A stretch of 64,000 nucleotides of DNA from Bacteroidetes bacterium UBA6161 (GTDB lineage: Bacteria; Bacteroidota; Bacteroidia; NS11-12g; UBA955), in assembly GCA_002422315.1 (NCBI GenBank), contig DIUJ01000051.1, positions 24,887-88,886 on the forward strand. The letters are read 5' to 3'. Below are positions 9,892-29,441 of this stretch, piece by piece. The notes beneath the pieces were generated by a model. That model made no database searches and was not told the origin of the DNA. It was given only the letters and a program-made list of their open reading frames with translations. Both the position numbers and the translations under genes were made by a program. Numbering within the stretch: position 1 is the stretch's first letter; the number at the start of each line of letters is the position of its first letter.

Positions 9892-9936
9892 AGTTATTTG
9901 TTTTTAAATTGCTCTTGTTTTAAATGTGTTATAATG

Positions 9937-10337: not shown

Positions 10338-10391
10338 GTGCACTTGTCCGCCTTAGGAGGAACAGCTACGCCTTAGGATGAACAGCTACGG
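10338..10391 (-). repeat. Cassette 3' box, copy 2, with an internal 20-bp tandem duplication (10351-10370 / 10371-10390)
   Basis: GTGCACTTGTCCG then CCTTAGGAGGAACAGCTACG CCTTAGGATGAACAGCTACG. Lies immediately downstream of the 10421 stop. Confidence 0.7.
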
Positions 10392-10420
10392 CTGTTTGCA
10401 TTAGAGGTTTTATTCTCTCG

Positions 10421-14923: not shown

Positions 14924-14935
14924 TTAAACTTGTAA

Positions 14936-16330
14936 TTAGTTGTTTAATTTATTAAGGTCTTGACAAAATTGCTCACGCTTAATTTTGGAAATAATTGAAG
15001 GAGAATGAGTCGCAAGTATAAATTGTGTTTTAGGACTTGCTTCCATAATGGAATCAACAAATATTTCTTGCCATGCTATGTGAAGTGATAGTTCAGGTTC
15101 GTCTATTATAAAAATACCTGATGGTTTTTGATCCTCTTCAAAGATTAAATGAGCAATCATTATAATAATTTGCTTTTCGCCCGATGATAGTTCAAATACA
15201 TTAGCAAGTTTATTGTTTCTTAACCTAACTTTTATTTCTCCATCTGGAGCTATAATAAGTGATTTTTTTCCTTCTTTAAGAAAGTTTGTAGCAATGTCTT
15301 CAAGTTTTTTTATAGGTGTTCTTAGATTACTAATTTGCTCTTGATATTGTTGACTATAATTAATTAAGTCATCTATTCTTTTTAGTTGAGAACCATTATT
15401 GAACCACGTCCTAATTATATTTATGTATTCATCTTGGAATTTGTTGATTATTTCCTTGCTATTTTCTTTCTTTTTCTCGTATTCTATGTTTTGTTTTACA
15501 ATATTCTCTATTTTACTGAAAAAAGAATTTACATCATAATTCAAATAATCAATACCTAGATTAGTAACAGCCGCAGTAACTTTTTCCTTTCTCTCTTGGA
15601 GTGCTTCTACAGTTGAGGGTATTGGTTCAAGATTGTAATCAGATATAAAACTGAATGATTGTTTGAAAATTTTCTTTTTAAATTCTTCACTAATTTGCGG
15701 TTGTCTCTGAGCAATTTTTCTAAAATAATCATAAACTAGCATTTGAACCTCCTCAAGACTTGAATCTATAGCTGGTGGCTCTGGATAGCCTTCATAATTT
15801 CTTTTTACTCTTTGATTAATTCCATGACGTCTTGTTTTAAATCTAAAGTCTATAAACCTACCCTCATATATTCTCCGGTCAAGCCCCAAAAACTTAGGTG
15901 TTGCTATTTCTCGAATTTTTTTTGTAATCTCTAGGTTATCAAAATACTCTCTATGTCTTTGTTCTGTAATCGAAAATTCCTCAATATCATACGGTTCATC
16001 ATTTCGTAGAAATCTGGGCATAGGTTCGCTCTCAACTTTTTCATTGTTGAATATAAATTCAATTTTAAAAGTCGCTGTTTTTTTATCCTGCTCTGCTCTT
16101 ATTACTATATCCTTTTCATCAGAATTCGAACTGCAAACAACCTCGCAGTATTTATAATTAATTTGATTAAGATAATTATATGATGGTGAAGTTAATCCGA
16201 GAATTAGTTTTAGTGCACTAGTCTTTCCTGAACCATTTATTCCAATTAGAAATGTAAGTTCTGAATAAAATTTGATGTCAAAGTTCAAATAGTCATGAAC
16301 ACCTTCTGCTTTAAATGAGTTTATTTTCAT
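14936..16330 (-). CDS. ariA: AAA_15/21-type ABC ATPase, AriA-like (putative PARIS sensor)
   Basis: Walker A GINGSGKTS near the N-terminus, long helical insertion, C-terminal SSGEKQ signature, Walker B IFIIDEPELSLH, H-loop ATHSP. Confidence 0.65.
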   Translation of the reverse strand: MKINSFKAEGVHDYLNFDIKFYSELTFLIGINGSGKTSALKLILGLTSPSYNYLNQINYKYCEVVCSSNSDEKDIVIRAEQDKKTATFKIEFIFNNEKVESEPMPRFLRNDEPYDIEEFSITEQRHREYFDNLEITKKIREIATPKFLGLDRRIYEGRFIDFRFKTRRHGINQRVKRNYEGYPEPPAIDSSLEEVQMLVYDYFRKIAQRQPQISEEFKKKIFKQSFSFISDYNLEPIPSTVEALQERKEKVTAAVTNLGIDYLNYDVNSFFSKIENIVKQNIEYEKKKENSKEIINKFQDEYINIIRTWFNNGSQLKRIDDLINYSQQYQEQISNLRTPIKKLEDIATNFLKEGKKSLIIAPDGEIKVRLRNNKLANVFELSSGEKQIIIMIAHLIFEEDQKPSGIFIIDEPELSLHIAWQEIFVDSIMEASPKTQFILATHSPSIISKIKREQFCQDLNKLNN

Positions 16331-16521
16331 GTTATGGATTTTTCGTTTTTGTTATTTTTCTAGTTTTTAGAATGACGCCAACTTACTTCTAACCCTTCCT
16401 TCATCCAACATATACAACCAAATTCTATTGCATAAGCCTGAAAAGTGTCAGGTTTTATTTTTCAGCCCCACAAACATACTCCCTTTTTACATAAATACAA
16501 GTAATTCAATGCATAAAAAAA

Positions 16522-16537
16522 GGGAGCAATTGCTCCC
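16522..16537. terminator. Bidirectional intrinsic terminator-like palindrome (GGGAGCAATTGCTCCC flanked by A-run and T-run)
   Basis: Perfect 16-nt palindrome preceded by AAAAAAA and followed by TTTTT. Lies between the hsdM 3' region and the ariA upstream region. Confidence 0.6.
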
Positions 16538-16649
16538 TTTTTACTTTAGTGTTGAAAATTTTAGTTGTCCACTATGCTTACTTCTACGGCTATGGGTTCG
16601 GGGCTAGTGTTTTGAAAAATCAAATAATCGCCCGATGTGCCAAGGGTTT

Positions 16650-16775
16650 GTAACAAGTAGTCTTCATTTAGTAACAAGCAGTCTTCATTTAGTAACAAGT
16701 AGTCTTCATTTAGTAACAAGTAGTCTTCGATTTGTAACAAGTAGTCTGCAATTAGTAACAAGTAGTCTGTGTTTT
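16650..16775. repeat. Six head-to-tail 21-bp direct repeats (consensus GTAACAAGTAGTCTTCATTTA)
   Basis: Units start at 16650, 16671, 16692, 16713, 16734 and 16755. The first 14 nt are almost invariant and the last 7 nt drift in units 4-6. Confidence 0.95.
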
Positions 16776-17132: not shown

Positions 17133-18656
17133 CTATTCTTCTCCGTTTATGGTTTCCATTATTTCTTTAAAGCTATTTAATCCTGCTTCAATATTTTCAA
17201 TGATTTCGTTTGCTAATACATCAGGGTCTGGCAAGTTATCTAAGTCGGTGAGGCTTTTGTCCTTTATCCAAAATATGTCTAAGTTGGTTTTGTCACGCTC
17301 AATGATTTCCTGGTACTTGAATTTTCTCCAACGTCCTTCAGGGTTTTCTTCGCTCCACGTTTCTACTCTTTTGTTTCTGTTTTCGGGATTGTAGCATTTT
17401 ACAAAGTCTTTCAAATGCTCCGAAGTCATTGGGTTTTTCTTGAGTGTGTGGCTTATGTTACTGCGATAATCATAAATCCAGACTTCTTTTGTCCAAGGGT
17501 CTTTGGAAGCAGGTTTGTTGTCGAAAAACAACACATTTGCTTTTACACCTTGTGCATAGAAAATCCCTGTCGGCAATCGTAAAATGGTGTGTAGTTCGGT
17601 GGTTTTTAACAATTCTTTACGCACTGTCTCACCTGCACCACCTTCAAACAAAACATTGTCGGGCAAAACTACGGCTGCTTCGCCTGTGAGTTTGAGTAGC
17701 GTTTTTATGTGTTGCAAAAAGTTCAGTTGTTTGTTGGCTGTGGTTGCCACAAAGTCCTGACGGTTGATAATGTAGTCTTGCTTTTCTTGTTTGCCTTCTT
17801 CGTTGGTAATGGTCATACTGCTTTTTTTACCAAAAGGCGGATTGGCAAGTACATAATCAAAACGCTGACCATTGTCGGAAATCAAGGCATCTGCCGATGA
17901 AATCAAGGGCTCGCCATCTATCTCGCCAATGTTGTGCAGAAACATATTCATCAAGCACATTCTGCGGGTGTTGGCTACAATCTCGTTTCCGTAAAATGTT
18001 TTATTTTTCAAAAACTCTTTTTCCTCTTTGTCTAATTCATGGGCTTTGATAAAATCATAAGCCGCCAAAAAGAAACCGCCCGTGCCACAAGCAGGGTCAT
18101 TTATGGTTCGCATGGGTTTGGGGCGAACACAAGCCACCATAGCTTTGATTAAGGAACGAGGCGTAAAATATTGTCCTGCACCTGAGCTTCCACTACTATC
18201 CATAGCGTTTTTCTCTAAAAGGCCTTCGTATATTTTCCCTTTGATGTCTGCACCCATCAATGTCCATTCCTCTTTGTCAATCATATCAATGATTTTTAAA
18301 AGCCTGGAAGGGTCTTGAATTTTGTTTTGGCTCTTGACGAATATCTGACCTAATGTGCCTTTTTCACTTCCCAAACTGCGAAGCATTTGGTTGTAAAAAG
18401 TTTCTAACTCCAAGCCACGTTTTTGCGAAAGCGTTTGCCAGTCGCAGGTTTCGCCTTTGGGGTCTTCTTCGCCTTGGGCGTTTTTTAGTTTGGGGAATTT
18501 TAGTCCTTTGCTGTATGGCGGCTTGTTGAGTTCATCTGCCATTTTCAGGAAAAGCAAATAGGTGATTTGCTCCAGATAATCACCATAACCCACGCCATCA
18601 TCACGAAGGACATTGGCGAAATTCCACACTTTTGATACGATTGCACTTTCTGACAT
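17133..18656 (-). CDS. hsdM: Type I restriction-modification system, DNA methyltransferase subunit M
   Basis: HsdM N-terminal domain (VWNFANVLRDDG...YLEQITYLLFLK), SAM motif DPACGTGGF, catalytic NPPFG. Confidence 0.93.
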   Translation of the reverse strand: MSESAIVSKVWNFANVLRDDGVGYGDYLEQITYLLFLKMADELNKPPYSKGLKFPKLKNAQGEEDPKGETCDWQTLSQKRGLELETFYNQMLRSLGSEKGTLGQIFVKSQNKIQDPSRLLKIIDMIDKEEWTLMGADIKGKIYEGLLEKNAMDSSGSSGAGQYFTPRSLIKAMVACVRPKPMRTINDPACGTGGFFLAAYDFIKAHELDKEEKEFLKNKTFYGNEIVANTRRMCLMNMFLHNIGEIDGEPLISSADALISDNGQRFDYVLANPPFGKKSSMTITNEEGKQEKQDYIINRQDFVATTANKQLNFLQHIKTLLKLTGEAAVVLPDNVLFEGGAGETVRKELLKTTELHTILRLPTGIFYAQGVKANVLFFDNKPASKDPWTKEVWIYDYRSNISHTLKKNPMTSEHLKDFVKCYNPENRNKRVETWSEENPEGRWRKFKYQEIIERDKTNLDIFWIKDKSLTDLDNLPDPDVLANEIIENIEAGLNSFKEIMETINGEE

Positions 18657-18657
18657 A

Positions 18658-18978
18658 TTATTCGCTTTCTAATTCTGTAATTAATTCGACAATGTTCTTT
18701 GGAGTTAAAAATTCCGTTTTAAAGTATTCAGAATAATTTTTTCTAATTTCCCGTCTATAAATTGAAGCTTCTTTACCTAAAGTGTTTGCCTGTTCTTCCT
18801 CAATTAACTGGTAACCTTTTATTGCTTTTAATGATATTGATAGCCTGTTTTTAAATTTTTTATTATCTCTTTCGAGTTGACGAATTTTCTTAATATCACG
18901 CTGGAGAATAAAACTCGTTATAATCCCAACTAAGGCTACAATTAAGCCGCCAATTGCTATAAAATCTGAACTGTTCAT
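18658..18978 (-). CDS. Small single-pass membrane/coiled-coil protein (106 aa from the ATG at 18978) wedged between hsdS and hsdM
   Basis: MNSSDFIAIGGLIVALVGIITSFIL is a TM helix, followed by a charged helical tail. There are 1-nt gaps to both neighbours. The longer track ORF (to 19107) would overlap hsdS. Confidence 0.5.
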   Translation of the reverse strand: MNSSDFIAIGGLIVALVGIITSFILQRDIKKIRQLERDNKKFKNRLSISLKAIKGYQLIEEEQANTLGKEASIYRREIRKNYSEYFKTEFLTPKNIVELITELESE

Positions 18979-18979
18979 A

Positions 18980-20497
18980 CTATTTCTTGCTTTTCTTTTT
19001 AATGGTTGATTTTTTCTTCTCTTGTTCTTTTGCCAATTTCTCGGCTTGTATTTTTTTGAGCAATTCGCTGGCAGGTTCGTAATCTGCTGCGGCTTTGCAC
19101 TGGGCAATTTCTGCCTGGCTTAGTAGCTTGCCTTCAAAGGCTTTTTTGAGAATGCTTTGGCGAAGGGCTTCGGCTTTTTCTATGCTTTCGTTTATGCTTT
19201 GCTCCATTTTATCGCAAACCGATAAACGGCTTTCTATTTCTTGAACGATTTGGGTTTGTTCTTGAAGTGAACAGATATTAATATGAACACTTCGTACAGA
19301 TATTTTATCAATTGTTGGATTACCAACACCTTTCACGTACGATTTTATTTCTTTTTCTTGATGGAAATTTTTCAATTGATAAAATAAAAACTGACTTGAT
19401 ATTAATTTAATTCTTAAGGCAAATAAATTCATAGCCAAAGAAGCTTTACGATTAAGCATTGGCATTAAATAAACTCTACCAGCATTTCCGATTTTACCAA
19501 TTAAAATTTCATTGCCATACAATTTTGATTTAGAGAGAAAATTGTAACCGTGTTTGTTCACATATTTCAAGTCGTTTTTAAAATCTTGCTTCTCAAAATT
19601 TGTTGCCCTTATCATAATTGCATAATCAGGTATATCAGTAAGTGTAACATTTGATTTTAAAACTTCATAGCTTCCGTTTGCGTGATAATCTGTTAAATCT
19701 GAAATTACATCAGCAATTTGGCATTTACTCCAATTAACTGGGGTTTTGAATTCTGCTTTGTAATCGGAAATTACAGATATATCCAATTTGCTTGGTTTTC
19801 TTGGCTTAGTTTCAACCTTCCCATTCTTCTCCCAATCTTTCACCGCTTTTTTCCAATCTTCCATTTGTTGGTTGTAGTGGTTTTGGCGTTCTTCTTTTAT
19901 TTGTTTTAAAAGTGCTGACGCTGTGGGTAGGTGGGTTTGTTTTGCTCGCCATTCTTTGGTGAGTTCGCCCTCAAACGCCTTTTTCAACACCGCCTGCCGA
20001 TACACTTTCAGTTGCTCTTGTGCTTTTTTAAAATTGGCTATGCCGTTGTCTAAATCGGAAAAGAGTTCTTCTGTTTTTGATAAAATAGCATTTTGCACCA
20101 CCAATGGCGGAAGCAGTATTTTTTTCTTTGCGTAGACAGAAATCCAATACCTTTTGTGTGTGTCGTTACGCACTCGGTTTACTTGTATGCAGTTGAACAA
20201 ATACTTCATATTTACAAGTTTGCTCGTTGGTACAAGTATTTTCATTGCAGAAGATTTCACCTTAAATGGAAAATCTACAAATTGAGTTGCGGTAGTGAAA
20301 TCATCAAAAATAATGGTTGGCAATTCATTAAAAATGCCGTCTGTTTCATTTGTGTAACCTTTAATAAATGATTTGCCCGCTGTCAATACAGGGGTTTTAA
20401 AATTATCACTATACTTCGTACTTTTTACTATGTATTTTGTCGGTTGTTCATAGTCCAACAAATCTTCAAAAGTGCATTCAATCCAATCTTCTCTCAT
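18980..20497 (-). CDS. hsdS: Type I restriction-modification system, specificity subunit S
   Basis: Two variable target-recognition regions separated by the duplicated conserved helices YRQAVLKKAFEGELT and LRQSILKKAFEGKLL. Confidence 0.9.
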   Translation of the reverse strand: MREDWIECTFEDLLDYEQPTKYIVKSTKYSDNFKTPVLTAGKSFIKGYTNETDGIFNELPTIIFDDFTTATQFVDFPFKVKSSAMKILVPTSKLVNMKYLFNCIQVNRVRNDTHKRYWISVYAKKKILLPPLVVQNAILSKTEELFSDLDNGIANFKKAQEQLKVYRQAVLKKAFEGELTKEWRAKQTHLPTASALLKQIKEERQNHYNQQMEDWKKAVKDWEKNGKVETKPRKPSKLDISVISDYKAEFKTPVNWSKCQIADVISDLTDYHANGSYEVLKSNVTLTDIPDYAIMIRATNFEKQDFKNDLKYVNKHGYNFLSKSKLYGNEILIGKIGNAGRVYLMPMLNRKASLAMNLFALRIKLISSQFLFYQLKNFHQEKEIKSYVKGVGNPTIDKISVRSVHINICSLQEQTQIVQEIESRLSVCDKMEQSINESIEKAEALRQSILKKAFEGKLLSQAEIAQCKAAADYEPASELLKKIQAEKLAKEQEKKKSTIKKKSKK

Positions 20498-20500
20498 ATC

Positions 20501-21769
20501 CTACTTAGTCATTATTTTTTCAACTACACTTGTTACACTTCCAGGCATTGAGGGAGAAGAATCATCTTTTAGTAAGCCTGTATCTGCTCTACTGAATAGA
20601 GATTGTAAAACTAATTGCCTGTCGGCATCTTCAACATTGCCATCTTTCTTTAATGCTAAGTATAAATAAGTTAATTGTTCTCGTTCTTCGGCATCACGTG
20701 CTAAGTGAAATGAGCTAAAACTCAATTTGGCTAAAATCCTAATTCCATAAGCCAATAATGAAATGAATGTAATAAAAACGATTGACCATTTAATTGCTGT
20801 ACCTGCACTTTCAAATATTTTACCAATTGAATCATTGGCAATTGTACCCAATAGAAAATACAATAACCCTGTCGCAAAGACAACCAAAGCAACCAACCAC
20901 ATTATATATTTTTTACCATCACGTTTTAAAGCCAAAACTCTTTTGCTCCAATAATCGGCAGGCGATTTTAATCGTAATAAATCTCTATAAGTTTTCTCTA
21001 AATCTGTGCGGTGTTTTAATGTATCGTCAACAAATTTTTGATGATTGTTTTTTGCCTCATCATACCAAGTATCGAACGATGTTTCTTTGTCTTGCTTTGT
21101 TTCATCAATAGATTTTGCATAGTGTTCACTCTTTTGTTTTGCCTCAGCTAAATAACTATTTAAATGCTCTTCAGATTTGGATAAATATTTACTAAAGTCA
21201 TTTCTAATTTTCGATAATGAAGACTTTTCTGCATTTCGTCTTTCAGCAATATCAGTATGGTCTTTTCTTATAAACTCGTATGCGATTAAGTAGGCAGTTA
21301 AACTTTTAGCGTTGTTTGGCGAAATGTTTTGATTGGTCGAAAAGGCATTAAGGAAATTGAAAATTTCTTGGTTGTATTCTGGTTGTTCAACATTTACTTT
21401 TATTAAAAAATCAGTTTCAGGGCAGTCATATGTATAAGTATTAGTTGCTTGATTTAAGATATTCTTAGAAATATTATCCCATTTGTTTACCAACTGGTTT
21501 TCATTCCAAGAGGATGAATTTGCTATTATTTGCTCTAAACTGGCTATTGAAGTTTTAAAGTAATTTATTGAAGTTTGAAGAGTAGAAGGTACATTTTCCA
21601 TAGAAGTCCAACCATCATATTGCTTTTTAAAATAAAGATAAATAGCAGAAAAGGATTCTAATCTTTCATTAATTCTTACTAGATTGAAATTTATATCGAC
21701 ACTAACCTTATCGAACCATTCTGGTGATTGAGAGTTGCTTATAGCTGTTCTAAGTTCTTTTATAGTCAT
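20501..21769 (-). CDS. Uncharacterised protein: ~310-aa soluble N-terminal region, two TM helices and a ~75-aa conserved-looking tail (422 aa from the ATG at 21769)
   Basis: TM segments YIMWLVALVVFATGLLYFLLGTI and WSIVFITFISLLAYGIRILAKL. The upstream extension in the track ORF overlaps the preceding gene, so ATG 21769 is preferred. Confidence 0.6.
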   Translation of the reverse strand: MTIKELRTAISNSQSPEWFDKVSVDINFNLVRINERLESFSAIYLYFKKQYDGWTSMENVPSTLQTSINYFKTSIASLEQIIANSSSWNENQLVNKWDNISKNILNQATNTYTYDCPETDFLIKVNVEQPEYNQEIFNFLNAFSTNQNISPNNAKSLTAYLIAYEFIRKDHTDIAERRNAEKSSLSKIRNDFSKYLSKSEEHLNSYLAEAKQKSEHYAKSIDETKQDKETSFDTWYDEAKNNHQKFVDDTLKHRTDLEKTYRDLLRLKSPADYWSKRVLALKRDGKKYIMWLVALVVFATGLLYFLLGTIANDSIGKIFESAGTAIKWSIVFITFISLLAYGIRILAKLSFSSFHLARDAEEREQLTYLYLALKKDGNVEDADRQLVLQSLFSRADTGLLKDDSSPSMPGSVTSVVEKIMTK

Positions 21770-21783
21770 TGTTAAACTGATGA

Positions 21784-22614
21784 TTAAAATAATTGGGTTT
21801 GTATTTCTCTTTTTGGATAGAACACACCAATAATGACAAAAGGATTTTTTGACCTTCGGGTGTGCCATTCTTTGGTGGTACCCAAAAAGAAATAGAGATC
21901 TTTGTTGTTGATAAAGTTGGTTTCGTATTGTTCACGCACTTTTTCAAGAGCTTGTTCTTCGTTACCATTAGCACTTTTTAAGCATTTCCAATATAATTGT
22001 CCTATTTCCCAATCTTCAATCATCAGATTGCTTATTTTTCCCGTTTCATCTTCAAATTTGTATTTAAACTTAAAAGGCACTTTAGGGAAAGGCTCTTTTT
22101 CGGAGTTGTTTTCTTTGGGAAACAAAGTTATTTGGTTTTGCAAAGCTTTCCACACTGGTTTCCAATCGTCTTCGTCTTTCTCTATAATCAGCTTATGTAT
22201 TTTAGTTGGTTTAAAAGTAGCCAACGATTTGTTTTTAGGGGCTTTGCTTTCATCAATTAAGGTTTGCAAATTGGTATAGACATTGTTCAAGCAAAGTTGC
22301 TTTCTAATATGCCAATTGCTATCTGTATTAATGGTTTCGCCTATGACCAAATCCTTAAATTCATAATCTTGTGGCGAAAAACTTTCGGGTCTAAAGTCGT
22401 CTGTTCTTTCTTTTAAATCGAGCTCAATCCAAGTATATTTGGTTTGTTTAACTTTCCCCATTGATTTTAAACCCTTCAAAAAACTCAAAGGCATAGGATA
22501 AATTCGTAACCATTCGCCATTTTCCAAAACGCCTGCTGTACATACCAATTCATCATAACTTCTAGAGGGAAGTGGATAAGTGGTAACTGTTAGTAAGACT
22601 TTTTTACGAGGCAT
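21784..22614 (-). CDS. Uncharacterised 276-aa protein embedded in the type I R-M operon
   Basis: Long uninterrupted ORF, 2 nt downstream of the DUF488 gene and 14 nt upstream of the next gene. I recognise no motif. Confidence 0.6.
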   Translation of the reverse strand: MPRKKVLLTVTTYPLPSRSYDELVCTAGVLENGEWLRIYPMPLSFLKGLKSMGKVKQTKYTWIELDLKERTDDFRPESFSPQDYEFKDLVIGETINTDSNWHIRKQLCLNNVYTNLQTLIDESKAPKNKSLATFKPTKIHKLIIEKDEDDWKPVWKALQNQITLFPKENNSEKEPFPKVPFKFKYKFEDETGKISNLMIEDWEIGQLYWKCLKSANGNEEQALEKVREQYETNFINNKDLYFFLGTTKEWHTRRSKNPFVIIGVFYPKREIQTQLF

Positions 22615-22616
22615 TG

Positions 22617-23501
22617 TTATAAATGAATAAGTTCATAATTAAATTGGGGTAATTCACATATTGCCTCTGCTAAGTGTTTGCGGTGGCATTGGCAAATGTC
22701 TTTTTCAAAACACGTAATTGCGACCCTGCTGTGTTCTTTAATTAGGTTAAGAATCTTTTCTTGTTCAGTTAGTGTTTTCGGAATTACTGTTTTTTTATAT
22801 TCTTCAAACAATACATCATAATCTTTTTGGGTGTTTAATTCTTTTCTTTTATCTGAAACAATACCCACCTCAGGTATATGTAAAAATTGTATTCCCACCC
22901 CTTCGCAAGCCATTTTTAATTGTGATTTGCTAAAACCATACTTCATACTGAAAGAATTTTTGCGCACATCACACAACACTTTTACATCAGCTTTTATTAA
23001 TTTATTTAGATATTGCTCAATACTAACACCCTCGTAACCAATTGTAAAAAGAGCATTTGTTTTAGAAGAGGGCTTTTGTTTTTCTACCTTTTCAAGTTCT
23101 TCTACACTTAATATATGATGAGCAATTTTACTATTTATAGCATAATAGGGATGGTTTCGATAGGTATGTTTTATTAAATAATCAGATGATTTACCACTAA
23201 AATTATTTTTTAATTCTAGTAATGCCTTTTTATCTTCTAATGTCAATTCTCCTAAATAGGTTTGGTTTGTAGTTTTTTTCCAGTATTTTTCACCTTCCTC
23301 TACCCATTCATATTTTTTCATTGTTGCTAAGTCTGCATTAGCTTGAAATGAAAAACAGCCATATTTATAGGGTACAAAGTTATAACTTGGATTTTTTTGA
23401 TAGATTCCAAAAAGCATCAATAACTTTTGAAGTTGAAATTTTTCGAGCTCTCCTCCAAAGGTTTCTATAAGTGACAATATAATTTTTCTTCTATAGTACA
23501 T
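22617..23501 (-). CDS. DUF488 domain protein with an N-terminal ~140-aa extension (possible Panacea/SocA-like winged helix)
   Basis: The C-terminal half, FTIGYEGVSIEQYLNKLIKADVKVLCDVRKNSFSMKYGFSKSQLKMACEGVGIQFLHIPEVG, fits the DUF488 pattern (TIGhs...DVR..P.S....F....L). The N-terminal QLQKLLMLFG...VPYKYGCFS resembles DUF4065/Panacea. Confidence 0.65.
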   Translation of the reverse strand: MYYRRKIILSLIETFGGELEKFQLQKLLMLFGIYQKNPSYNFVPYKYGCFSFQANADLATMKKYEWVEEGEKYWKKTTNQTYLGELTLEDKKALLELKNNFSGKSSDYLIKHTYRNHPYYAINSKIAHHILSVEELEKVEKQKPSSKTNALFTIGYEGVSIEQYLNKLIKADVKVLCDVRKNSFSMKYGFSKSQLKMACEGVGIQFLHIPEVGIVSDKRKELNTQKDYDVLFEEYKKTVIPKTLTEQEKILNLIKEHSRVAITCFEKDICQCHRKHLAEAICELPQFNYELIHL

Positions 23502-23538
23502 TTAATTCTATTTTTTTTTAAAAAGCAAAGTTAAAGAT

Positions 23539-26352
23539 TTACGCTGCCAACACCTCGTTTAATTCTTCAATAATCTGCGTCATTTCAGCACCAAAAAGTT
23601 GGTACATTCTGCCTCGTCCGCCCTTTTCGTCAAAGGGTGTAAGGTCAAGGTCTTCAACTTCAATGTGATACGAGTTTACGACGTGATTTTTTAGGTCACG
23701 TAGCCAGTCCATTTGTTCTTTTGTAAATCGGTTGTGCTTGCCTGCATTTTGTTTAAAAATCCAGTTTTTAAAATTATCGTCAATGGTTTTGTCAAAAGGT
23801 TTTAGTTCGCTGTCTATACCGCAAGCCCTTCGTATGAGAGAAACCAAAGAAGTCAATTCGTCAATCGGTTGTTTGCTTTTCACATCTTCCAATTGGCTGT
23901 ATGCTGCCCAAACATAATCTGGGGCAAGCATTGGTTTGTCTAACTTCAACTTGTCAAACACTTCCTTTATCATTTTAAAGGTAATGTTTCTGCGGTTGTA
24001 GGGTTGTTTGTAAAAAATAGTAAGTGCTGCAACTTCGTCTTTATTTGCTTCCAGATATTCGCTAAAATCTTTTACAATTTCCTTTGCCTTATCCACCGAA
24101 GTGGTGTCCCATTCCGATTTGGTTACGGTGTCTATGTTGTGGCTGTCTATGATTTGCTCGTGTTCTTGATGAACTTTTTCAATGTAATCGTTCAGTTTGC
24201 CATTGAAGGTAGAAGCAGCCGTTTCTATCAATTCCTTTTGTGCCGTTTGCTTCGCATGTTCTATCAAAGCAGGGTTGCGGTCTTGCTCAGGAATGGATTC
24301 AATAATGAGTTTTGCCTTTTCTTCAATTTCGTCTTGGTCAAAAGCCGATAGCAATTCCTTGCTGATTTGTTTCAGATTTTTGCCCTTGCTGTGTTCCAGT
24401 AGTTTCTCTTTTTCCTTGTCAGTGATTTGCTTTTCCAAACGGATAAGACGGTTTGCCAACGAAAGAAACAAATCTTCTTCGGCTACCCCCATAGTAACCG
24501 CTCCCAAAAGGTCTTTGAGTGCTACGGTGGGTTTGCGTTCCAGTGGTCGGCTATCAGTTTTCTTGGATTTGATAACGCCTACGGCATCTACAATGATAAA
24601 ATGAGTTTTGGCACCAGCGGTTTTCGATACCATTTGCAAAGCATCTTTGTTAATGGTGCGTGTGCCTCTGCCTTTCATTTGCTCAAAGTAGTTCACGCTT
24701 TTTACATCACGCATAAAGAGCAGCACTTCCAAAGGTTTTACATCCGTGCCTGTGGCAATCATATCTACCGTAACGGCAATGCGTGGGTAGTAGGAATTGC
24801 GGAAACGATTCAGCACCGATTTGGGGTCTTCTTGTATTTTGTAAGTGAGTTTTTTGCAGAAGTCGTCTCCTTCATCAAATTCATTCCGAATGATTTTGAT
24901 AATATCGTCTGCATGGCTATCGGTTTTGGCAAATACTAAGGTTTTTGGTACTTCGTATTCTCCGTTTTCGTCTTTTCGGTTGGGGAAAATTTCGGTTTGC
25001 AAGGCCTTTTTAAACTCTCGGATAATGTTTCGGATTTGGCTTGGGTTTACTACCTTTTTATCCAGTTCGTTTCGGGTATATTCGGTGTCTTCGTCTTCTT
25101 GTGCCCAGCGGGTTTTTCGGGTGAGTTTGTCTCGTCTGTCCACATACCAACCTGCCTGAATTTTACTGCCTTTTTGCGAAATATCCGTTTCAATGGTGTA
25201 GACATCATAGGGTACATTTACGCCATCCACTACCGATTCCTCATAAGTGTATTCACTCACCACATTTTCCTCAAAAAAACCAAAGGTTCGTTTGTCTGGT
25301 GTAGCAGTTAAACCAATCAGAAAAGCATCAAAATAATCCAATACTTGTTTCCAAAGGTTGTAAATAGAACGGTGGCACTCATCAATTACAATAAAATCAA
25401 ATTGTTCAATCGGCACTTTGGGGTTGTAATCCACCGGAATGGCTTGTTTCTTTTCCCTTTGTTGCTCCATCCAAGTAGATTCATTCGGGTTGGTATCTTC
25501 TGCACCTTCTTCCAGTTCTTCGCCTTTTAAAATGGCATACATCCGTTGAATGGTAGAAATGCACACTTGACTATCAGAAGCGATATAGCTTGAAGTCAAA
25601 CGCTGTACATTGTATAGCTCTGTAAATTTGCGGTTGCTTTCATTGGGTTGGAAAGCCATAAATTCTTGCTCGGCTTGTTCGCCCAAATTTTTGGTGTCCA
25701 CCAAAAACAAAATGCGTTTGGCTTTGGCGTGTTCCAATAAGCGATAGACAAACGTGGCAGCCGTAAATGTCTTTCCTGCACCCGTAGCCATTTGAATCAA
25801 GGCTTTGGGTTTGTTCTTTTTGAAAGAAGTTTCCAGATTTTTAATCGCCATAATTTGAGCAGGGCGAAGCCCTGCCTCATTTAAAGCAGGAATATCTAAC
25901 AATCTTGCGCGTAAACTTTTGTCTTTTTGCAACCAGTCTGCCAGCGTTTCGGGTTTGAAAAACCAAAACAGGTTTCTACCTCTTGGTTTAGGGTCTCTCA
26001 AATCTCTAAAGCGTGTAATTGTCCCTGTGCTTTCAAACACAAAAGGTAAAGGGTCGTTGTCTAAATATTTCAGTTTAGCGTTGGCATATTCTAGGGATTG
26101 GTCTTCTGCAACAGTGAGTTTATGTCCTTCGTCTGCTTTTTTGGCTTCAATAATTCCAACAGGTTTTTTGTCTACAAAAAGTACATAGTCTGCAAAGCCC
26201 GAAGCAGCTTGATACTCTCTCACGGCAACACCTCTGCCAGCTCCTAAGTCCACTTCGTTTTTTGATTGAACAATCCAACCCGCTTCTTTCAACATAAAGT
26301 CGATTTTGTCTCGTGCAATTTGTTCAGGATTTTGATTTTTATCTATACTCAT
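23539..26352 (-). CDS. hsdR: Type I restriction-modification system, restriction/helicase subunit R
   Basis: N-terminal PD-(D/E)xK region (ADYVLFVDKKPVGIIEAKK), SF2 motif I QMATGAGKTFTA, motif II VIDECHRS, downstream helicase motifs (GLTATP, MIATGTDV). Confidence 0.93.
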   Translation of the reverse strand: MSIDKNQNPEQIARDKIDFMLKEAGWIVQSKNEVDLGAGRGVAVREYQAASGFADYVLFVDKKPVGIIEAKKADEGHKLTVAEDQSLEYANAKLKYLDNDPLPFVFESTGTITRFRDLRDPKPRGRNLFWFFKPETLADWLQKDKSLRARLLDIPALNEAGLRPAQIMAIKNLETSFKKNKPKALIQMATGAGKTFTAATFVYRLLEHAKAKRILFLVDTKNLGEQAEQEFMAFQPNESNRKFTELYNVQRLTSSYIASDSQVCISTIQRMYAILKGEELEEGAEDTNPNESTWMEQQREKKQAIPVDYNPKVPIEQFDFIVIDECHRSIYNLWKQVLDYFDAFLIGLTATPDKRTFGFFEENVVSEYTYEESVVDGVNVPYDVYTIETDISQKGSKIQAGWYVDRRDKLTRKTRWAQEDEDTEYTRNELDKKVVNPSQIRNIIREFKKALQTEIFPNRKDENGEYEVPKTLVFAKTDSHADDIIKIIRNEFDEGDDFCKKLTYKIQEDPKSVLNRFRNSYYPRIAVTVDMIATGTDVKPLEVLLFMRDVKSVNYFEQMKGRGTRTINKDALQMVSKTAGAKTHFIIVDAVGVIKSKKTDSRPLERKPTVALKDLLGAVTMGVAEEDLFLSLANRLIRLEKQITDKEKEKLLEHSKGKNLKQISKELLSAFDQDEIEEKAKLIIESIPEQDRNPALIEHAKQTAQKELIETAASTFNGKLNDYIEKVHQEHEQIIDSHNIDTVTKSEWDTTSVDKAKEIVKDFSEYLEANKDEVAALTIFYKQPYNRRNITFKMIKEVFDKLKLDKPMLAPDYVWAAYSQLEDVKSKQPIDELTSLVSLIRRACGIDSELKPFDKTIDDNFKNWIFKQNAGKHNRFTKEQMDWLRDLKNHVVNSYHIEVEDLDLTPFDEKGGRGRMYQLFGAEMTQIIEELNEVLAA

Positions 26353-26787: not shown

Positions 26788-27111
26788 ATGGGAATAACAA
26801 AGACGGAAGGTTTTGAACCTGCACTTTTACAGCATGTGGTGGTGCTTAAAGCTCTCGCGCACCCCGCCCGACTTGCCATTTTATTGCATATCTTGCAAAG
26901 TAAGTCGTGTATTTGTACCGATTTAGTAAAAGAATTGAACCTTGCACAGTCCACTATCTCCAAGCATTTGGCAGAGCTAAAAACTGCAAACCTTATTCAA
27001 GGAAGCATAGAGCAAAATTCCTACTGTTATTGTATAAACCCAACAGAACTCACAAAAATTTCTAATTTTATTCAAAATTTAATACCCATTCAAAACTTTA
27101 ATTGCTGTTAA
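26788..27111 (+). CDS. arsR: ArsR/SmtB family metalloregulator
   Basis: wHTH LKALAHPARLAILLHIL, CxC metal site SCICTDLVKEL and STISKHLAELK. Confidence 0.9.
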   Translation: MGITKTEGFEPALLQHVVVLKALAHPARLAILLHILQSKSCICTDLVKELNLAQSTISKHLAELKTANLIQGSIEQNSYCYCINPTELTKISNFIQNLIPIQNFNCC

Positions 27112-27113
27112 GT

Positions 27114-27626
27114 ATGAACACAAACAATCCTTTCCCAAGAATGCACGTCTCTTTGTATGTAAACAATTTGGCTGCTACTGTAAATTTTTACAATCAGTTT
27201 TTTGGCCAAGCGGCCACTAAAATAAAACCCGGCTATGCCAAGTATGTACTAGAAAAGCCAAGCCTTATTATTTCGTTTATAGAAAACCCAGAAAGGGTAC
27301 AGGCTCATTTTGGGCATTTGGGTTTTCAGGTAGAAACCCAAGAAGCCATGCAAGCTGCCTTGGAAGCGGCCAAAAAACAAGGTTTGGTAAGTAAAGAGGA
27401 GCTAGGTACTTCTTGTTGTTATGCGGTACAAGACAAGTTTTGGGCTACAGACCCAGATGGGGTTCAGTGGGAAGTTTATTATTTTCATGAAGATGCGGAG
27501 TTTAACGATCCCCATTACGAAACCCAAGATGCGAGTGCATGTTGTATGCCTCCGGTTTCTGAAGCAAAACCAAAGAAAACCATCCAAGAGATAGTATCCT
27601 GTACCCCAAATAGTGGTTGCTGCTAG
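27114..27626 (+). CDS. arsI: ArsI/CadI-family glyoxalase-fold metalloenzyme (candidate C-As lyase)
   Basis: VOC/glyoxalase fold with vicinal cysteines in GTSCCYAVQDKFWATDPDGVQWEVY. Cys-rich C-terminus (CC...C...CC). ATG at 27114 preferred over the track's TTG at 27102. Confidence 0.7.
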   Translation: MNTNNPFPRMHVSLYVNNLAATVNFYNQFFGQAATKIKPGYAKYVLEKPSLIISFIENPERVQAHFGHLGFQVETQEAMQAALEAAKKQGLVSKEELGTSCCYAVQDKFWATDPDGVQWEVYYFHEDAEFNDPHYETQDASACCMPPVSEAKPKKTIQEIVSCTPNSGCC

Positions 27627-27629
27627 TAT

Positions 27630-28241
27630 ATGAAAAGTGTAGAGGAGTTTTATCAAGAAATCAAAGGGATTTCTATAGGCCAACAAAGGCAGGAGCTTTT
27701 GTTAGAAATAGCAAAGGGAATACAGCAGAATCTCGATAAAAACATAAGACTTAATCTTTTGTTTGTATGCACCCACAATTCCAGAAGGAGTCAATTTGGG
27801 CAGCTTTGGGCTTCTTATTTTAGCCAGATATTAGGCTTTTCGGAGTATATTTCTTGTTTTTCTGCAGGAACAGAAGCCACGGAATGCAATATTCGCACCA
27901 TACGAGCCCTTGAAAGTGCAGGGTTTAGGGCGCAGTTTAGCGTGTGCCAGCCAAACCCCAAGTACGATCTGTTTTCAGGCAAGGAAGTTAGTCCTATTCG
28001 ATTGTTTTCTAAAACTATTGACGATAGTTCTTTGCCCAAGGAAAACATCGTAGCCCTTATGACCTGCTCCGATGCAGAAGAAAATTGCCCGTATGTAAAT
28101 GGAACACTTTTGAAATTTAGTTTAAACTATAAGGATCCCAAAGAATTTGACAACACCCTTGAGGAAAAAGAAGCGTATTGGCTAAAAAGTAAGGAAATAG
28201 CTTCGGAGATATTATTTATTTTAAAACACTTAAAAAAATGA
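27630..28241 (+). CDS. arsC: Arsenate reductase, LMW phosphotyrosine-phosphatase family
   Basis: P-loop CTHNSRRS (CX5R) and downstream TCSDAEENCP. Carries an N-terminal ~35-aa extension. Confidence 0.85.
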   Translation: MKSVEEFYQEIKGISIGQQRQELLLEIAKGIQQNLDKNIRLNLLFVCTHNSRRSQFGQLWASYFSQILGFSEYISCFSAGTEATECNIRTIRALESAGFRAQFSVCQPNPKYDLFSGKEVSPIRLFSKTIDDSSLPKENIVALMTCSDAEENCPYVNGTLLKFSLNYKDPKEFDNTLEEKEAYWLKSKEIASEILFILKHLKK

Positions 28242-29269
28242 CAGACAAAAAAACAGGAATTGGTTTTTTCGAAAAATACCTAAGTATATGGGTAGCTGCA
28301 TGTATTGTGATAGGCGTGGTTTTAGGATCCTTGTTCCCGGGGGTATTTCAAGTTCTTACCCATATACAAGTTTCTGGTATTAACCTACCCATTGCCATAT
28401 TGGTTTGGGCGATGATTTTTCCAATGATGGTTCAAATAGATTTTGGTTCCTTGGGCCAAAGCATGCAATTTAAGAAAGGTTTGTTTCTTACGCTGTTTAT
28501 CAATTGGGTTTTGAAACCCCTTTCCATGGCATTGTTTGCTTGGGTGTTTTTCAAGTATTTGTATGCTGCTTTCCTAAGTCCAGAGCAAGCACAAGAATAT
28601 ATTGCAGGAGCCATTTTGTTAGGCGCAGCACCATGCACAGCTATGGTATTTGTATGGTCTTTTTTAACCAAGGGCAATGCCAACTATACCTTAGTTCAAG
28701 TAGCGGTAAACGACATTGTATTGTTAGTTCTATTTGTGCCCATTGTTTCTTTACTCATTGGGGTTAGCGATATACACATACCCTACGATACCCTTTTTTA
28801 TTCTGTAGTATTGTTTGTATTGTTGCCCCTATTGGCAGGTTTTTTTGCCAATAAAATACTTGTTAGAAAAAAAGGGAAAGAATGGTTTCAGCAGAGCTTT
28901 TTACCGGGTTTAAAACCTATATCTATTCTTGCACTGCTGCTTACTTTAGTGTTAATTTTTGCATACCAAGGGCCACAAATTGTCTCAAATCCTTGGAATA
29001 TATTTTTGATAGCCATACCATTAACCATACAAACCTATTTTATATTTTTTACCACATGGATTATGGGCCGAAAGTTAAGATTAAACAAAGACATCGCTGG
29101 GCCATCGGCTCTGATAGGTGCTAGTAATTTCTTTGAGTTGGCGGTAGTAGTTGCTATTTTGCTTTTCGGGATAGATTCGGGAGCGGTTTTGGCAACAGTG
29201 GTAGGGGTGCTTATAGAGGTGCCTGTAATGCTAAGTTTGGTATGGTGGGTTAATAAACAAAAGGGGTAG
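28238..29269 (+). CDS. acr3: ACR3-family arsenite efflux permease
   Basis: About 10 TM helices with FFEKYLSIWVAACIV and the conserved GAAPCTAMVFVW segment. Overlaps arsC by 4 nt. Confidence 0.9.
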   Translation: MTDKKTGIGFFEKYLSIWVAACIVIGVVLGSLFPGVFQVLTHIQVSGINLPIAILVWAMIFPMMVQIDFGSLGQSMQFKKGLFLTLFINWVLKPLSMALFAWVFFKYLYAAFLSPEQAQEYIAGAILLGAAPCTAMVFVWSFLTKGNANYTLVQVAVNDIVLLVLFVPIVSLLIGVSDIHIPYDTLFYSVVLFVLLPLLAGFFANKILVRKKGKEWFQQSFLPGLKPISILALLLTLVLIFAYQGPQIVSNPWNIFLIAIPLTIQTYFIFFTTWIMGRKLRLNKDIAGPSALIGASNFFELAVVVAILLFGIDSGAVLATVVGVLIEVPVMLSLVWWVNKQKG

Positions 29270-29326: not shown

Positions 29327-29367
29327 TCTTTTACTTTTTGGCGATGACCGGTTGGGAATTGTAGATT
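29327..29367. repeat. 41-bp direct repeat, copy 1 (TCTTTTACTTTTTGGCGATGACCGGTTGGGAATTGTAGATT)
   Basis: Identical, by direct reading, to 30181-30221. Confidence 0.9.
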
Positions 29368-29441
29368 GAAGATTTCAGATTGAAGATTGTAGATTGAAGA
29401 TTGTAGATTGAAGATTGTAGATTGAAGATTGTAGATTGAAG
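29358..29441. repeat. Six tandem 14-bp repeats (ATTGTAGATTGAAG; unit 2 is ATTTCAGATTGAAG)
   Basis: Units start at 29358, 29372, 29386, 29400, 29414 and 29428. The cognate position in the second copy (30213-30236) carries a different short repeat (TAGATTTT-like). Confidence 0.9.

Follow-up and report, generated by a model that had tools for sequence, protein, structure and literature searches.

Two catalogued modules in a probable cargo slot of a type I restriction-modification operon from a Bacteroidetes bacterium

Accessory defence genes can be nested among type I hsd genes, as is the case for PrrC in the EcoprrI hsd cluster and for other genes embedded in restriction-modification (R-M) loci. 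Another gene of relevance here, AbiZ of Lactococcus lactis pTR2030, was reportedly described by Durmaz and Klaenhammer in 2007. Lactococcal AbiZ was reported to cooperate with the phage holin, resulting in premature lysis, a phenotype that comes from Lactococcus only (PMC13064643, PMC6356687). The PanAT systems are toxin-antitoxin pairs with a Panacea/DUF4065 antitoxin, which carries a GPV signature motif (Kurata et al. 2022, PMC8832971). The candidate PDC-M19 of PADLOC-DB v2 (Payne, Hughes, Fineran & Jackson 2024) is the cassette FAM_02799>>FAM_02993, listed in Table S8 of Payne et al. 2024 (bioRxiv 10.1101/2024.01.29.577857). It was found by "guilt-by-embedding" and is a bioinformatic candidate without described domains, mechanism or phenotype; seven embedded systems were assayed in that work, and PDC-M19 is one of 145 candidates outside those seven (bioRxiv 10.1101/2024.01.29.577857). 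No mention of PDC-M19 by name was found in the literature searched.

The locus described here lies in a window of 64,000 nucleotides of Bacteroidetes bacterium UBA6161 (contig DIUJ01000051.1), which is the whole stretch of DNA that was analysed. With a probability of about 0.7, the 3,041 nt from the hsdR stop to the hsdS start (23538..20498) are a cargo slot with variable content in a type I R-M operon of the EcoEI_R_C type, occupied in this case by two independent, already catalogued modules. Both modules would presumably serve in anti-phage defence.

The type I R-M operon and its cargo

The operon is encoded on the minus strand and comprises seven co-directional genes, from hsdR to hsdM, separated by gaps of 37, 2, 14, 3, 1 and 1 nt. 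The gene row and the gaps given in the initial annotation matched the ORF list and the junction sequences exactly. The upstream backbone gene of the cargo slot, hsdR (23539..26352, 937 aa), encodes a type I restriction subunit with an EcoEI_R_C-type C-terminus; it matched ResIII, EcoEI_R_C, SWI2_SNF2 and HSDR_N in Pfam and REase_I in PADLOC. The cargo consists of gene A (22617..23501, 294 aa), gene B (21784..22614, 276 aa) and an AbiZ-like gene (20501..21769, 422 aa). On the downstream side, the specificity subunit gene hsdS (18980..20497, 505 aa) matched Methylase_S (Pfam) and Specificity_I (PADLOC). It is followed by a small ORF (18658..18978, 106 aa) and by the methyltransferase subunit gene hsdM (17133..18656, 507 aa), with Pfam matches to N6_Mtase and HsdM_N and a PADLOC match to MTase_I (E 1e-189). 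HsdR, HsdS and HsdM are all present and full length, with the same lengths as their homologues in the sister operons L005, L088 and L095.

The identical seven-gene row was observed in three independent metagenome samples; therefore, it is no assembly accident. The sequences from these samples were the same or nearly identical, and represent one lineage.

The comparison with sister operons bears directly on the nature of the insert. In L095, whose HsdR and HsdM share 91% and 92% amino acid identity with those of the window, the slot is empty: A, B and the AbiZ-like gene are all missing and hsdS begins right at the stop codon of hsdR. Other sister operons carry A-B only (L004 and L005), the AbiZ-like gene together with DUF433/PIN (L088), or a 489-aa unknown protein followed by the AbiZ-like gene (L090). 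Taken over the close relatives, this junction and the one between hsdS and hsdM were found to hold nothing, PDC-M19, AbiZ-like, DUF433/PIN, Fic/RhuM (PDC-S23) or GmrSD-like genes. The GC3 of the cargo was 0.22-0.33, compared with 0.40-0.44 for hsdR and hsdM. The earlier description of the 3-kb insert as defence-type accessory cargo is thus borne out by a relative that has a 91% identical HsdR and nothing at the junction; as to the defence character, all three cargo genes matched PADLOC defence or candidate models.

The small ORF sits in a further slot, at the hsdS/hsdM junction. Its longest form starts from a TTG and has 149 aa, while the 106-aa ATG form is the one found in public calls and in six variant homologues; the 90% identity cluster contains seven variant sequences, 6/7 of them of 106 aa. 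A hydropathy scan located one TM segment, an N-terminal helix, as had been noted initially, and the family search gave no match beyond a weak, TM-only one to a holin PHROG. This ORF is present in L095 at 90% identity despite the absence there of A, B and the AbiZ-like gene, and is independent of these three.

The arrangement resembles the EcoprrI hsd cluster in that accessory defence genes are nested among type I hsd genes. It differs in that no PrrC model was among the PADLOC matches of the three cargo proteins and the small ORF, and the cargo of the present operon is also found outside R-M loci. The initial annotation had further proposed that the cargo guards the R-M system or is guarded by it. 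Nothing in this analysis points to either role, and no sign of a functional coupling of the cargo to the R-M enzyme was detected.

Anatomy of the A-B pair

By profile comparison, A and B are identified as a member of PDC-M19. Gene A matched PDC-M19A (PDLC04505) with E 2.3e-126 (residues 1-294 on profile positions 1-294/294) and gene B matched PDC-M19B (PDLC04508) with E 1.1e-113 (residues 1-276 on 1-269/269). Both profiles are covered end to end in the same gene order, and the embedding in a type I R-M operon is of the kind that was used in the discovery of the candidate. No structural difference was observed. The initial annotation could not place the cargo in any named defence system; A-B belongs to this PADLOC candidate, and the third gene to the AbiZ/DUF6161 family. 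What is added here to PDC-M19 are the predicted folds of its proteins, a deep linkage of DUF488 and tandem-OB proteins, a promoter-like box of its own and its independence from the AbiZ-like neighbour.

DUF488 is a very large family of unknown function, with E. coli YeaO among its members. It belongs to the RapZ-C-DUF488-DUF4326 clade, with a rhodanese/phosphatase-like, Rossmann-like domain. An action on sugar-phosphate or nucleic-acid termini is predicted for this clade. In gene A, the DUF488 domain (PF04343) that had been recognised earlier was confirmed by Pfam at aa 160-280 (nt 22662-23024, E 9e-23). PF22751 (DUF488-N3a) scored 20.6 bits against gene A, below the cut-off of 27, and is precomputed for many close homologues. 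The residues G155, Y156, D178-V-R180, C264, E266 and C272-H-R274 were invariant in the window copy and in 11 distant B-linked DUF488 proteins. Judging by this conserved GY/DVR/CxE/CHR site, the domain is predicted to be catalytically intact.

The N-terminal domain of A spans approximately aa 1-146 (nt 23064-23501). When the AF2 model of A (pLDDT 89.4) was searched with Foldseek, the top PDB match was chain 7yk3_D of a DarTG complex (probability 1.0, TMt 0.53). A marginal match (E 0.007) was also obtained between aa 3-100 and positions 163-258 of the PADLOC DarG profile. These two matches, one of them marginal and the other with the 7yk3 chain assumed to be DarG, suggest a weak resemblance to the DarG C-terminal domain. 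DarG itself combines a macrodomain with a toxin-binding C-terminal domain, and the logic of A-B may be analogous, since here too an enzymatic domain is fused to a putative partner-binding domain and the partner would deal with ssDNA. In contrast to DarTG, the two domains of A come in the opposite order, its partner B has an OB-fold and the enzyme is a DUF488 protein. No match to the DarT ADP-ribosyltransferase or to the DarG macrodomain was found in A or B with Pfam and PADLOC, and A-B was rejected as a DarTG member, as it lacks both.

A similar comparison was made with PanAT. A-B is likewise a two-gene cassette with an unrelated partner, found in phages and plasmids, and Pfam SocA_Panacea matched the N-terminal domain in 15 of 35 homologues of A. 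In contrast to PanAT pairs, all of these matches were weak and below threshold (best E 7e-4), and the window copy gave no Panacea (PF13274) match even at E up to 1. At the position inferred to be equivalent, the window copy reads G48-C49-F50 instead of the GPV signature, and the A family keeps these residues almost invariably. A also differs in its extra conserved enzyme domain, and more distant pairs have no Panacea-like domain. With the PF13274 threshold not reached and the GPV motif not kept, A-B was not classed as a PanAT pair, and the Panacea assignment is a weak one. Overall, protein A looks like a Panacea/DarG-CTD-like domain fused to a predicted DUF488 enzyme, a description that is new.

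Gene B matched no Pfam or NCBIfam family. Its AF2 model (pLDDT 91.6) gave RPA, CST, HIN-200 and Teb1 as top Foldseek matches, and baculovirus LEF-3 was also retrieved; the TM-scores of these OB-fold matches were low (0.2-0.4). On the basis of this model, protein B is described here for the first time as a predicted tandem (dual) OB-fold protein resembling RPA and HIN. Across 91 sequences with identities as low as 32%, P14, R37, D73, R75 and W202 were invariant. The window copy did not match Pfam DuOB (PF22557), which was found only in the B homologues of Gordonia phages and Sulfolobus plasmids, marginally and below threshold (E ~0.002).

Distribution, promoter and possible roles of A-B

The initial annotation had treated the three cargo genes as one defence trio, with the membrane protein as the candidate effector. 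Under this reading, a DUF488 enzyme, its partner and a membrane effector would form a single system functionally coupled to R-M. The three genes lie on the same strand with gaps of only 2 and 14 nt, and their arrangement is repeated in the three metagenome samples; however, these samples come from the single lineage mentioned above. Among the 80 genomes with the A-B pair, A was directly upstream of B wherever the locus was informative (78/78), and none of the 80 had the AbiZ-like gene. The latter gene occurs without A-B in L088-L091, either in the same slot of sister operons or alone, and where A-B lies on a plasmid, a phage or a viral contig, no DUF6161 gene accompanies it. Judged by co-occurrence, the trio is already refuted, and as a functional system it has hardly any probability left.

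Type I R-M loci account for a minor part of the A-B distribution. Eight of the 80 copies are embedded in operons of this EcoEI_R_C-type family. Counting type I R-M genes of every kind, of which at least three architectures were seen, 14 copies have them nearby; the other 66 loci do not. Neighbour clustering revealed no third conserved partner, and the only recurrent neighbours were hsdR/S/M (11-12 loci) and metG (6 loci), the pair lying directly after metG in six Flavobacteriaceae. Immediate neighbours were defence-like in only ~10% of cases, and include Abi_2/HEPN, HEPN/Toprim-associated, ImmA/IrrE-like and other defence genes. With 14/80 copies near type I R-M, homologues of A-B lie largely outside defence islands, an outcome which the initial annotation had counted against its own proposal.

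The pair is patchy, being present in at least 594 of 185,579 species genomes, is often carried on mobile elements and is not a housekeeping unit. In Gordonia phages, gp43 is the B homologue and gp42 a DUF488 protein, adjoining the immunity repressor; in Gordonia prophages, the pair is directly downstream of the repressor, on the same strand and with a 1-nt overlap. DUF488 and B are also neighbours on Rhizobium, Pseudomonas and Calothrix plasmids, and adjoin in 30 of 31 informative IMG/VR viral contigs. Altogether, the adjacency spans Bacteroidota, Cyanobacteria, Proteobacteria plasmids, Gordonia prophages and viral contigs. In many lineages, the DUF488 gene has no Panacea-like domain and is convergent to B.

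A Bacteroidetes-type -7 promoter box, TAACTTTG (23526..23533, minus strand), was identified as a motif match in the 37-nt gap between hsdR and A, 32 nt 5' of the ATG of A. The motif TAnnTTTG occurs 11-32 nt 5' of the A start in 30/59 loci, and in 22 of these exactly at -12, against a background chance of ~2% per 46 nt. No box of this type was found before B, the AbiZ-like gene, hsdS, the small ORF or hsdM. The cargo had been considered almost certainly co-transcribed with the R-M genes. For A-B this is too strong, because of the conserved -7 box in the gap before A, and read-through from hsdR is possible. For the AbiZ-like gene the proposal stands in a softer form: read-through is likely, since this gene has no -7 box of its own. 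Taken as a unit, A-B appears to be autonomous, with its own promoter-like box, and to move between chromosomes, plasmids and prophages.

The analysis shows the modularity of the cargo, its domain and fold assignments, the linkage of DUF488 with B and a relative with an empty slot; every biochemical step of both modules, and the anti-phage function too, we infer. Protein B would bind ssDNA or DNA ends, serving either as a sensor or to arrest growth as a toxin. The DUF488 enzyme would act on the nucleic-acid substrate of B, or reverse an effect produced there, and the Panacea-like domain would tether or neutralise B until infection upsets the balance. This specific mechanism, with its DarTG-like logic, is put forward tentatively.

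Alternatively, A-B could primarily be a toxin-antitoxin or addiction module along the lines of PanAT/DarTG that stabilises its carrier element, be it an R-M operon, a plasmid or a prophage, and not a dedicated system against phages, with B as the toxin and A as a dual antitoxin acting by Panacea-like binding and DUF488 reversal. The resemblance of the A N-terminal domain to Panacea and to the DarG C-terminal domain is in line with this, as are the compact layout, with the antitoxin-like gene first and a gap of 2 nt, and the location on conjugative plasmids, beside integrases and in the immunity regions of prophages. Panacea antitoxins bind directly to many unrelated toxins and so neutralise them, and for a dual mode there is the precedent of DarG (PMC8832971). 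However, Pfam and Foldseek revealed no recognisable toxin or enzyme domain in B, the Panacea hallmarks are as weak as described above, and the convergent DUF488 genes without a binding domain fit a classical operon poorly. Moreover, toxin-antitoxin and defence roles are mutually compatible. As the primary role, this is considered rather unlikely.

Still less probable is a role in the DNA metabolism of mobile elements or their host, by protection or processing of ssDNA or DNA ends, or in countering host defence, the R-M slot being a case of hitch-hiking. The likeness of B to ssDNA-binding RPA, CST and LEF-3 would agree with it, and on Rhizobium pRL8, a conjugative plasmid, A-B is found close to a toprim/DUF3991 gene and to a helicase gene of very large size. 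The 66 loci away from type I R-M and the six after metG also fit. Against this stand the patchy distribution and the defence genes among the neighbours; the share of loci beside type I R-M (14/80) is far above chance, which was roughly estimated at ~1%, and the prophage site after the immunity repressor is typical of prophage defence genes.

The AbiZ-like gene and the meaning of the slot

The third cargo gene matched Pfam DUF6161 above the curated cut-off (E 8.6e-61) and PADLOC AbiZ over positions 41-386/398 (E 2.8e-24). Its longest ORF has 455 aa and overlaps B by 85 nt; the 422-aa start of the public gene calls was used, and one such call (P0391, 422 aa) is 100% identical to it. The two TM segments noted initially were confirmed by a hydropathy scan at aa 287-313 and 322-349 (nt 20723-20911), C-terminal to a helical, cytoplasmic N-region. 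From its family matches and its occurrence without A-B, the gene is identified as an independent single-gene module of the AbiZ/DUF6161 family, and not as the effector of the DUF488 pair.

A BLASTP comparison was made with a DUF6161 protein encoded beside abiA on a Lactococcus plasmid, presumably AbiZ itself. The alignment, with 30% identity and E 2e-19, was confined to the C-terminal 180 aa; the TM stretch fell on the equivalent hydrophobic stretch, and the N-terminal half could not be aligned. Apart from the HMM-level matches, the gene has in common with lactococcal AbiZ of pTR2030 a size of ~420 aa, the single-gene organisation and a pair of C-terminal TM helices ahead of a conserved tail. 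In addition to the limited alignment, it differs in its host, Gram-negative Bacteroidota instead of a Gram-positive organism, and in lying inside an R-M operon with no promoter box of its own. The protein would most likely act as its lactococcal counterpart, permeabilising the membrane together with a phage holin and so causing premature lysis.

The locus does not hold a new three-gene system. It indicates that R-M operons of the EcoEI_R_C-type family have defined junctions, hsdR/hsdS and hsdS/hsdM, which probably serve as exchangeable cargo slots. The PDC-M19 candidate gains a testable anatomy: a conserved putative DUF488 enzyme, a predicted tandem-OB partner retained across phyla, phages and plasmids, and, in this lineage, a Panacea/DarG-like binding domain. 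The DUF488/tandem-OB pair occurs in bacteria, in Sulfolobus conjugative plasmids and in actinophage and other proviral genomes. It is conceivable, with some doubt, that it represents an ancient and widely mobile two-gene conflict module, in which the OB protein recognises ssDNA or DNA ends and DUF488 processes nucleic-acid termini or a nucleotide-sugar adduct, with a Panacea/DarG-like, DarTG-style dual control in Bacteroidota. If A-B is active, DUF488 would gain a function, the first one under the reading as an ancient conflict module, and the known defence systems might be extended by a mechanism directed at DNA ends or ssDNA.

Gene order and identity of the cargo

Seven co-directional genes were found on the minus strand between positions 17133 and 26352, namely hsdR (26352..23539, 937 aa), gene A (23501..22617, 294 aa, with Pfam DUF488 at residues 160-280), gene B (22614..21784, 276 aa), a third cargo gene (21769..20501, 422 aa, Pfam DUF6161, two transmembrane (TM) helices by hydropathy), hsdS (20497..18980, 505 aa), a small ORF (18978..18658, 106 aa, one TM helix by hydropathy) and hsdM (18656..17133, 507 aa). 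The gaps of 37, 2, 14, 3, 1 and 1 nt described in the initial annotation were confirmed by the ORF coordinates and the junction sequences. The identities of hsdR, hsdS and hsdM were backed by Pfam and PADLOC, and the starts of the 422-aa and 106-aa proteins are those in public gene calls of identical proteins. The identical gene row was present in three metagenome samples (JGI 3300001605, SRR5323089 and SRR942940). In the JGI 3300001605 copy, hsdR was called in two pieces of 671 and 185 aa (L084:5412-8231), which could represent a frameshift variant or an assembly error; the gene is intact (937 aa) in both the window and the SRR5323089 copy. Third codon positions were richer in A and T in the cargo genes (GC3 0.22-0.33) than in hsdR and hsdM (0.40-0.44).

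A and B matched the PADLOC profiles PDC-M19A (E 2e-126) and PDC-M19B (E 1e-113) from end to end. The name PDC denotes systems predicted as "phage defence candidates" because they are embedded in BREX, DISARM or type I R-M loci (guilt-by-embedding); Table S8 of Payne et al. 2024 (bioRxiv 10.1101/2024.01.29.577857) lists PDC-M19 as cassette CAS_00089 (FAM_02799>>FAM_02993). It is a bioinformatic candidate in that study, the assays of which covered other systems, and no mention of PDC-M19 by name was found in the literature searched. The third gene matched Pfam DUF6161 (E 9e-61) and the PADLOC AbiZ profile (E 3e-24, positions 41-386 of 398). Over its TM-containing C-terminal 180 residues, it was 30% identical (E 2e-19) to a DUF6161 protein encoded beside abiA on a Lactococcus plasmid. 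AbiZ has been reported to work with the phage holin, increasing membrane permeability and causing premature lysis (PMC13064643; PMC6356687). The three genes, a combination that the initial annotation could not place in a named system, are thus assigned to PDC-M19 (A and B) and to AbiZ/DUF6161 (the third gene, hereafter AbiZ-like).

Independence and setting of the two cargo modules

Relatives of B were sought with 19 closer sequences in one genome per GTDB species and were detected in at least 594 genomes, of which the best 80 loci were examined for their neighbourhoods. A was located immediately upstream of B in all 78 of these loci having upstream sequence, and the AbiZ-like gene was present in none of the 80. 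A single three-gene system, as initially proposed, is rejected on the co-occurrence in these loci; the proposal of defence-type cargo within a type I R-M operon stands. Clustering of all neighbouring ORFs from the 80 loci revealed no third conserved partner of A-B, the sole recurrent neighbours being hsdR/S/M (11-12 loci) and methionyl-tRNA synthetase (six Flavobacteriaceae). DUF6161 homologues occur without A-B in sister operons, with the gene orders hsdR-DUF6161-DUF433-PIN-hsdS-hsdM (Galbibacter), DUF6161-hsdS-GmrSD_N-hsdM and hsdR-489aa-DUF6161-hsdS-Fic-DUF6946-hsdM-integrase. A Polaribacter homologue stands alone, likewise without A-B.

The closest relative of the operon backbone was locus L095, with HsdR, HsdM and small ORF 91%, 92% and 90% identical to those of the window, respectively. 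There, the hsdR stop directly abuts hsdS; the DNA identity to the window is approximately 85% up to position 23539 and picks up again inside hsdS. A-B was the only cargo of the slot in locus L004 (HsdR 88%) and in Psychroflexus salis (carrier strain CGMCC 1.12925). Since the slot is empty in L095 and carries A-B only in the latter two, the segment 23538..20498 (3,041 nt) is regarded as cargo occupying a slot with exchangeable content. In copies embedded in R-M operons, HsdR and B identities drop in parallel, from 88/91% to about 56-60/59-65%, so that the cargo can be retained over long periods besides being exchanged. Between hsdS and hsdM there is a second slot, occupied by the 106-aa ORF in the window (18658-18978, minus strand) and in L095 (L095:9001-9321), and elsewhere by Fic/RhuM (PADLOC PDC-S23/S05) or a GmrSD_N protein (HEC-05-like). 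This single-TM ORF, of which the trio-free L095 has a 90% identical copy, received no family assignment from domain searches.

A Bacteroidetes-type -7 box (TAnnTTTG; background chance about 2% per 46 nt) was found 11-32 nt upstream of the ATG of A in 30 of 59 loci, and at exactly -12 in 22 of them. In the window, the box is TAACTTTG (23533..23526), inside the 37-nt hsdR-A gap, and none was found there before B, the AbiZ-like gene, hsdS, the small ORF or hsdM. Having its own promoter-like box, A-B looks like an autonomous cassette with its own putative promoter, and the AbiZ-like gene probably relies on transcription from upstream. As judged from these motif matches, obligatory co-transcription of the cargo with the R-M genes, inferred in the initial annotation, is too strong a reading for A-B, which read-through from hsdR may also reach, and is probable for the AbiZ-like gene. 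In 22 genomes (loci L013-L077) the box ends just 4 nt before the ATG, implying a leaderless or near-leaderless mRNA for the free-standing cassette; in R-M-embedded copies it sits 22-32 nt upstream of A. The strict -33/-7 pattern TTTG-N-TAnnTTTG occurred at chance level in the window, the -7 box alone being informative only across loci. A scan of the operon for sigma-70 promoters and terminators, with a model ill-suited to Bacteroidota, also gave chance-level results.

Immediately downstream of hsdM, two genes separated by 12 nt (14078-16330, minus strand) encode an AriA-like ABC-type ATPase (464 aa, AAA_15/AAA_21; PADLOC AriA E 2e-27) and an AriB-like DUF4435 protein (281 aa; PADLOC AriB E 1e-16). 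Their GC3 was very low (0.18-0.20), and by sequence they form a PARIS-like pair. Between hsdM and the AriA-like gene, a gap of 800 nt contains a perfect palindromic hairpin flanked by A/T runs (16517-16542), terminator-like on both strands, and a 21-nt tandem repeat of 5.7 copies (16650-16768). The island extends beyond the R-M operon, as the minus strand further on carries a gene of the YhcG/DUF1016 PDDEXK nuclease family (12417-13397, 326 aa). Two paralogue-looking 116-aa ORFs (9541-9891 and 11550-11900, minus strand) gave weak DUF5004 matches, and a 289-aa ORF between them had no family match. On the other side, divergent from hsdR, an arsenic-resistance-like operon (26788-29269, plus strand) comprises genes for an ArsR-family HTH protein, a glyoxalase-fold protein, a 203-aa protein and an SBF/ACR3-like permease, and forms the right-hand limit of the defence island. 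The permease gene is closely followed, at 29358-29444, by 6.2 copies of a 7/14-nt tandem repeat (ATTGTAGATTGAAG). The host belongs to the Bacteroidota: a T9SS sorting domain is encoded in the window, and the nearest named relative in the genome scan was a Flavobacteriales MAG.

Folds and conserved residues of A and B

B gave no Pfam, NCBIfam or PDB sequence match, and in PHROG it matched only a family of unknown function. Neither single-sequence nor profile searches of the PDB gave a match for A, its N-domain or B. The AlphaFold2 model of B, built from 91 sequences, was confident (pLDDT 91.6). Its best structural matches were tandem-OB DNA binders (archaeal RPA filament, CST, HIN-200 domains and Teb1), along with baculovirus LEF-3 in a viral library. 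As the TM-scores were low (0.2-0.4), these matches support a tandem-OB architecture for the modelled protein and nothing finer. Pfam DuOB ("dual OB") was matched marginally by two distant homologues, one among 93 scanned members and one further. Residues P14, R37, D73, R75 and W202 of B were invariant down to 32% identity.

The model of A was also confident (pLDDT 89.4), and its best PDB match was a chain of 187 residues from the M. tuberculosis DarTG complex (7yk3; probability 1.0, TMt 0.53, 185 columns). Residues 3-100 marginally matched positions 163-258 of the PADLOC DarG profile, beyond the macrodomain. When 35 A N-domains were scanned singly, 15 matched Pfam SocA_Panacea weakly (best E 7e-4) and that of the window did not. 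Panacea domains are promiscuous antitoxins, able to neutralise many toxins by binding them directly, and DarG has been named as an antitoxin with a dual mode (PMC8832971). In the window copy, the position presumed equivalent to the Panacea signature GPV reads G48-C-F. Owing to this difference and to the missing Pfam match, the N-domain was labelled Panacea/DarG-CTD-like and not a member. These likenesses to antitoxins also fit a pure toxin-antitoxin or addiction role of A-B, a rival reading that we consider fairly unlikely.

The DUF488 half of A resembled Rossmann-like folds of the tetrapyrrole-methylase and dual-specificity-phosphatase kind in the structural search. This agrees with the classification reportedly made by Burroughs and Aravind in 2023, which is said to place DUF488 in a RapZ-C-DUF488-DUF4326 clade within the rhodanese-phosphatase superfamily, with sugar or nucleotide groups and DNA ends as predicted substrates in conflict systems. 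No functional account of the domain was found in the DUF488 literature searched. Residues G155, Y156, D178-V-R180, G213, C264, E266 and C272-H-R274 were invariant in the window A and 11 distant B-linked DUF488 partners, which argues for a conserved, predicted catalytic site.

DUF488-B linkage and proposed roles

Within the best 80 loci of the at least 594 B-carrying genomes, 14 A-B pairs (about 17%) adjoin type I R-M genes, in at least three architectures. Of the remaining immediate neighbours, roughly one in ten is defence-like (among them Type III and IIG enzymes, HerA, PD-Lambda-1 and ABC ATPases), and the others are ordinary genes. One distant DUF488-B pair adjoins an HTH/ImmA-like pair and an Abi_2/HEPN gene. 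In an R-M-embedded copy (L059:8164-10744), A and B lie approximately 950 nt apart and the match to B begins at residue 24, which may reflect an insertion or a disrupted B. A Gammaproteobacteria MAG (L067) carries two A copies within 10 kb (9111-10816 and 19336-20217), the second at the edge of the stretch seen.

DUF488 and B adjoin each other well outside Bacteroidota, too. Seven temperate phages of Gordonia, no other phage record having an A-like DUF488, encode a B homologue (gp43) that follows the immunity repressor immediately and in the same orientation, with a 1-nt overlap. Convergent with it is gp42, a stand-alone DUF488 protein (Pfam E 1e-29) misannotated as "HipA toxin". In Nymphadora, gene 42 (L002:5819-6271) overlaps gp43 by 10 nt at the 3' ends. 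Nymphadora gp44 ("immunity repressor") was rejected as an A homologue, since it showed no BLASTP similarity and the true DUF488 partner is gp42. Of the 31 informative IMG/VR viral contigs carrying B, 30 have DUF488 beside it, as a fusion with the N-domain upstream of B or as a stand-alone convergent gene. For two distant B representatives (P0270 and P0240), the contigs were too short for neighbours. The pair was also found on plasmids of Rhizobium, Pseudomonas, Burkholderia, Massilia, Streptomyces and Calothrix, and a B homologue adjoins an integrase on a Sulfolobus conjugative plasmid. A DNA-metabolism or anti-defence role on mobile elements is a further rival reading, which we consider unlikely.

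Starting from the modular architecture, the folds, the DUF488-B linkage and the conserved site, which the analysis demonstrates, a mode of action can be proposed. B may bind ssDNA or DNA ends, and the DUF488 domain would act chemically on the same nucleic-acid or nucleotide substrate. In Bacteroidota the Panacea-like domain could tether or neutralise B, which would give the pair a DarTG-like logic. The AbiZ-like protein, if it behaves as AbiZ does, would most likely hasten the lysis of infected cells. There is no sign that either module guards the R-M enzyme or is guarded by it, as had been suggested at first. The locus adds a further case to the known embedding of defence cargo in type I R-M operons, and its cargo consists of two already catalogued families, the candidate PDC-M19 and an AbiZ-like one. 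PDC-M19 is now given a testable anatomy.
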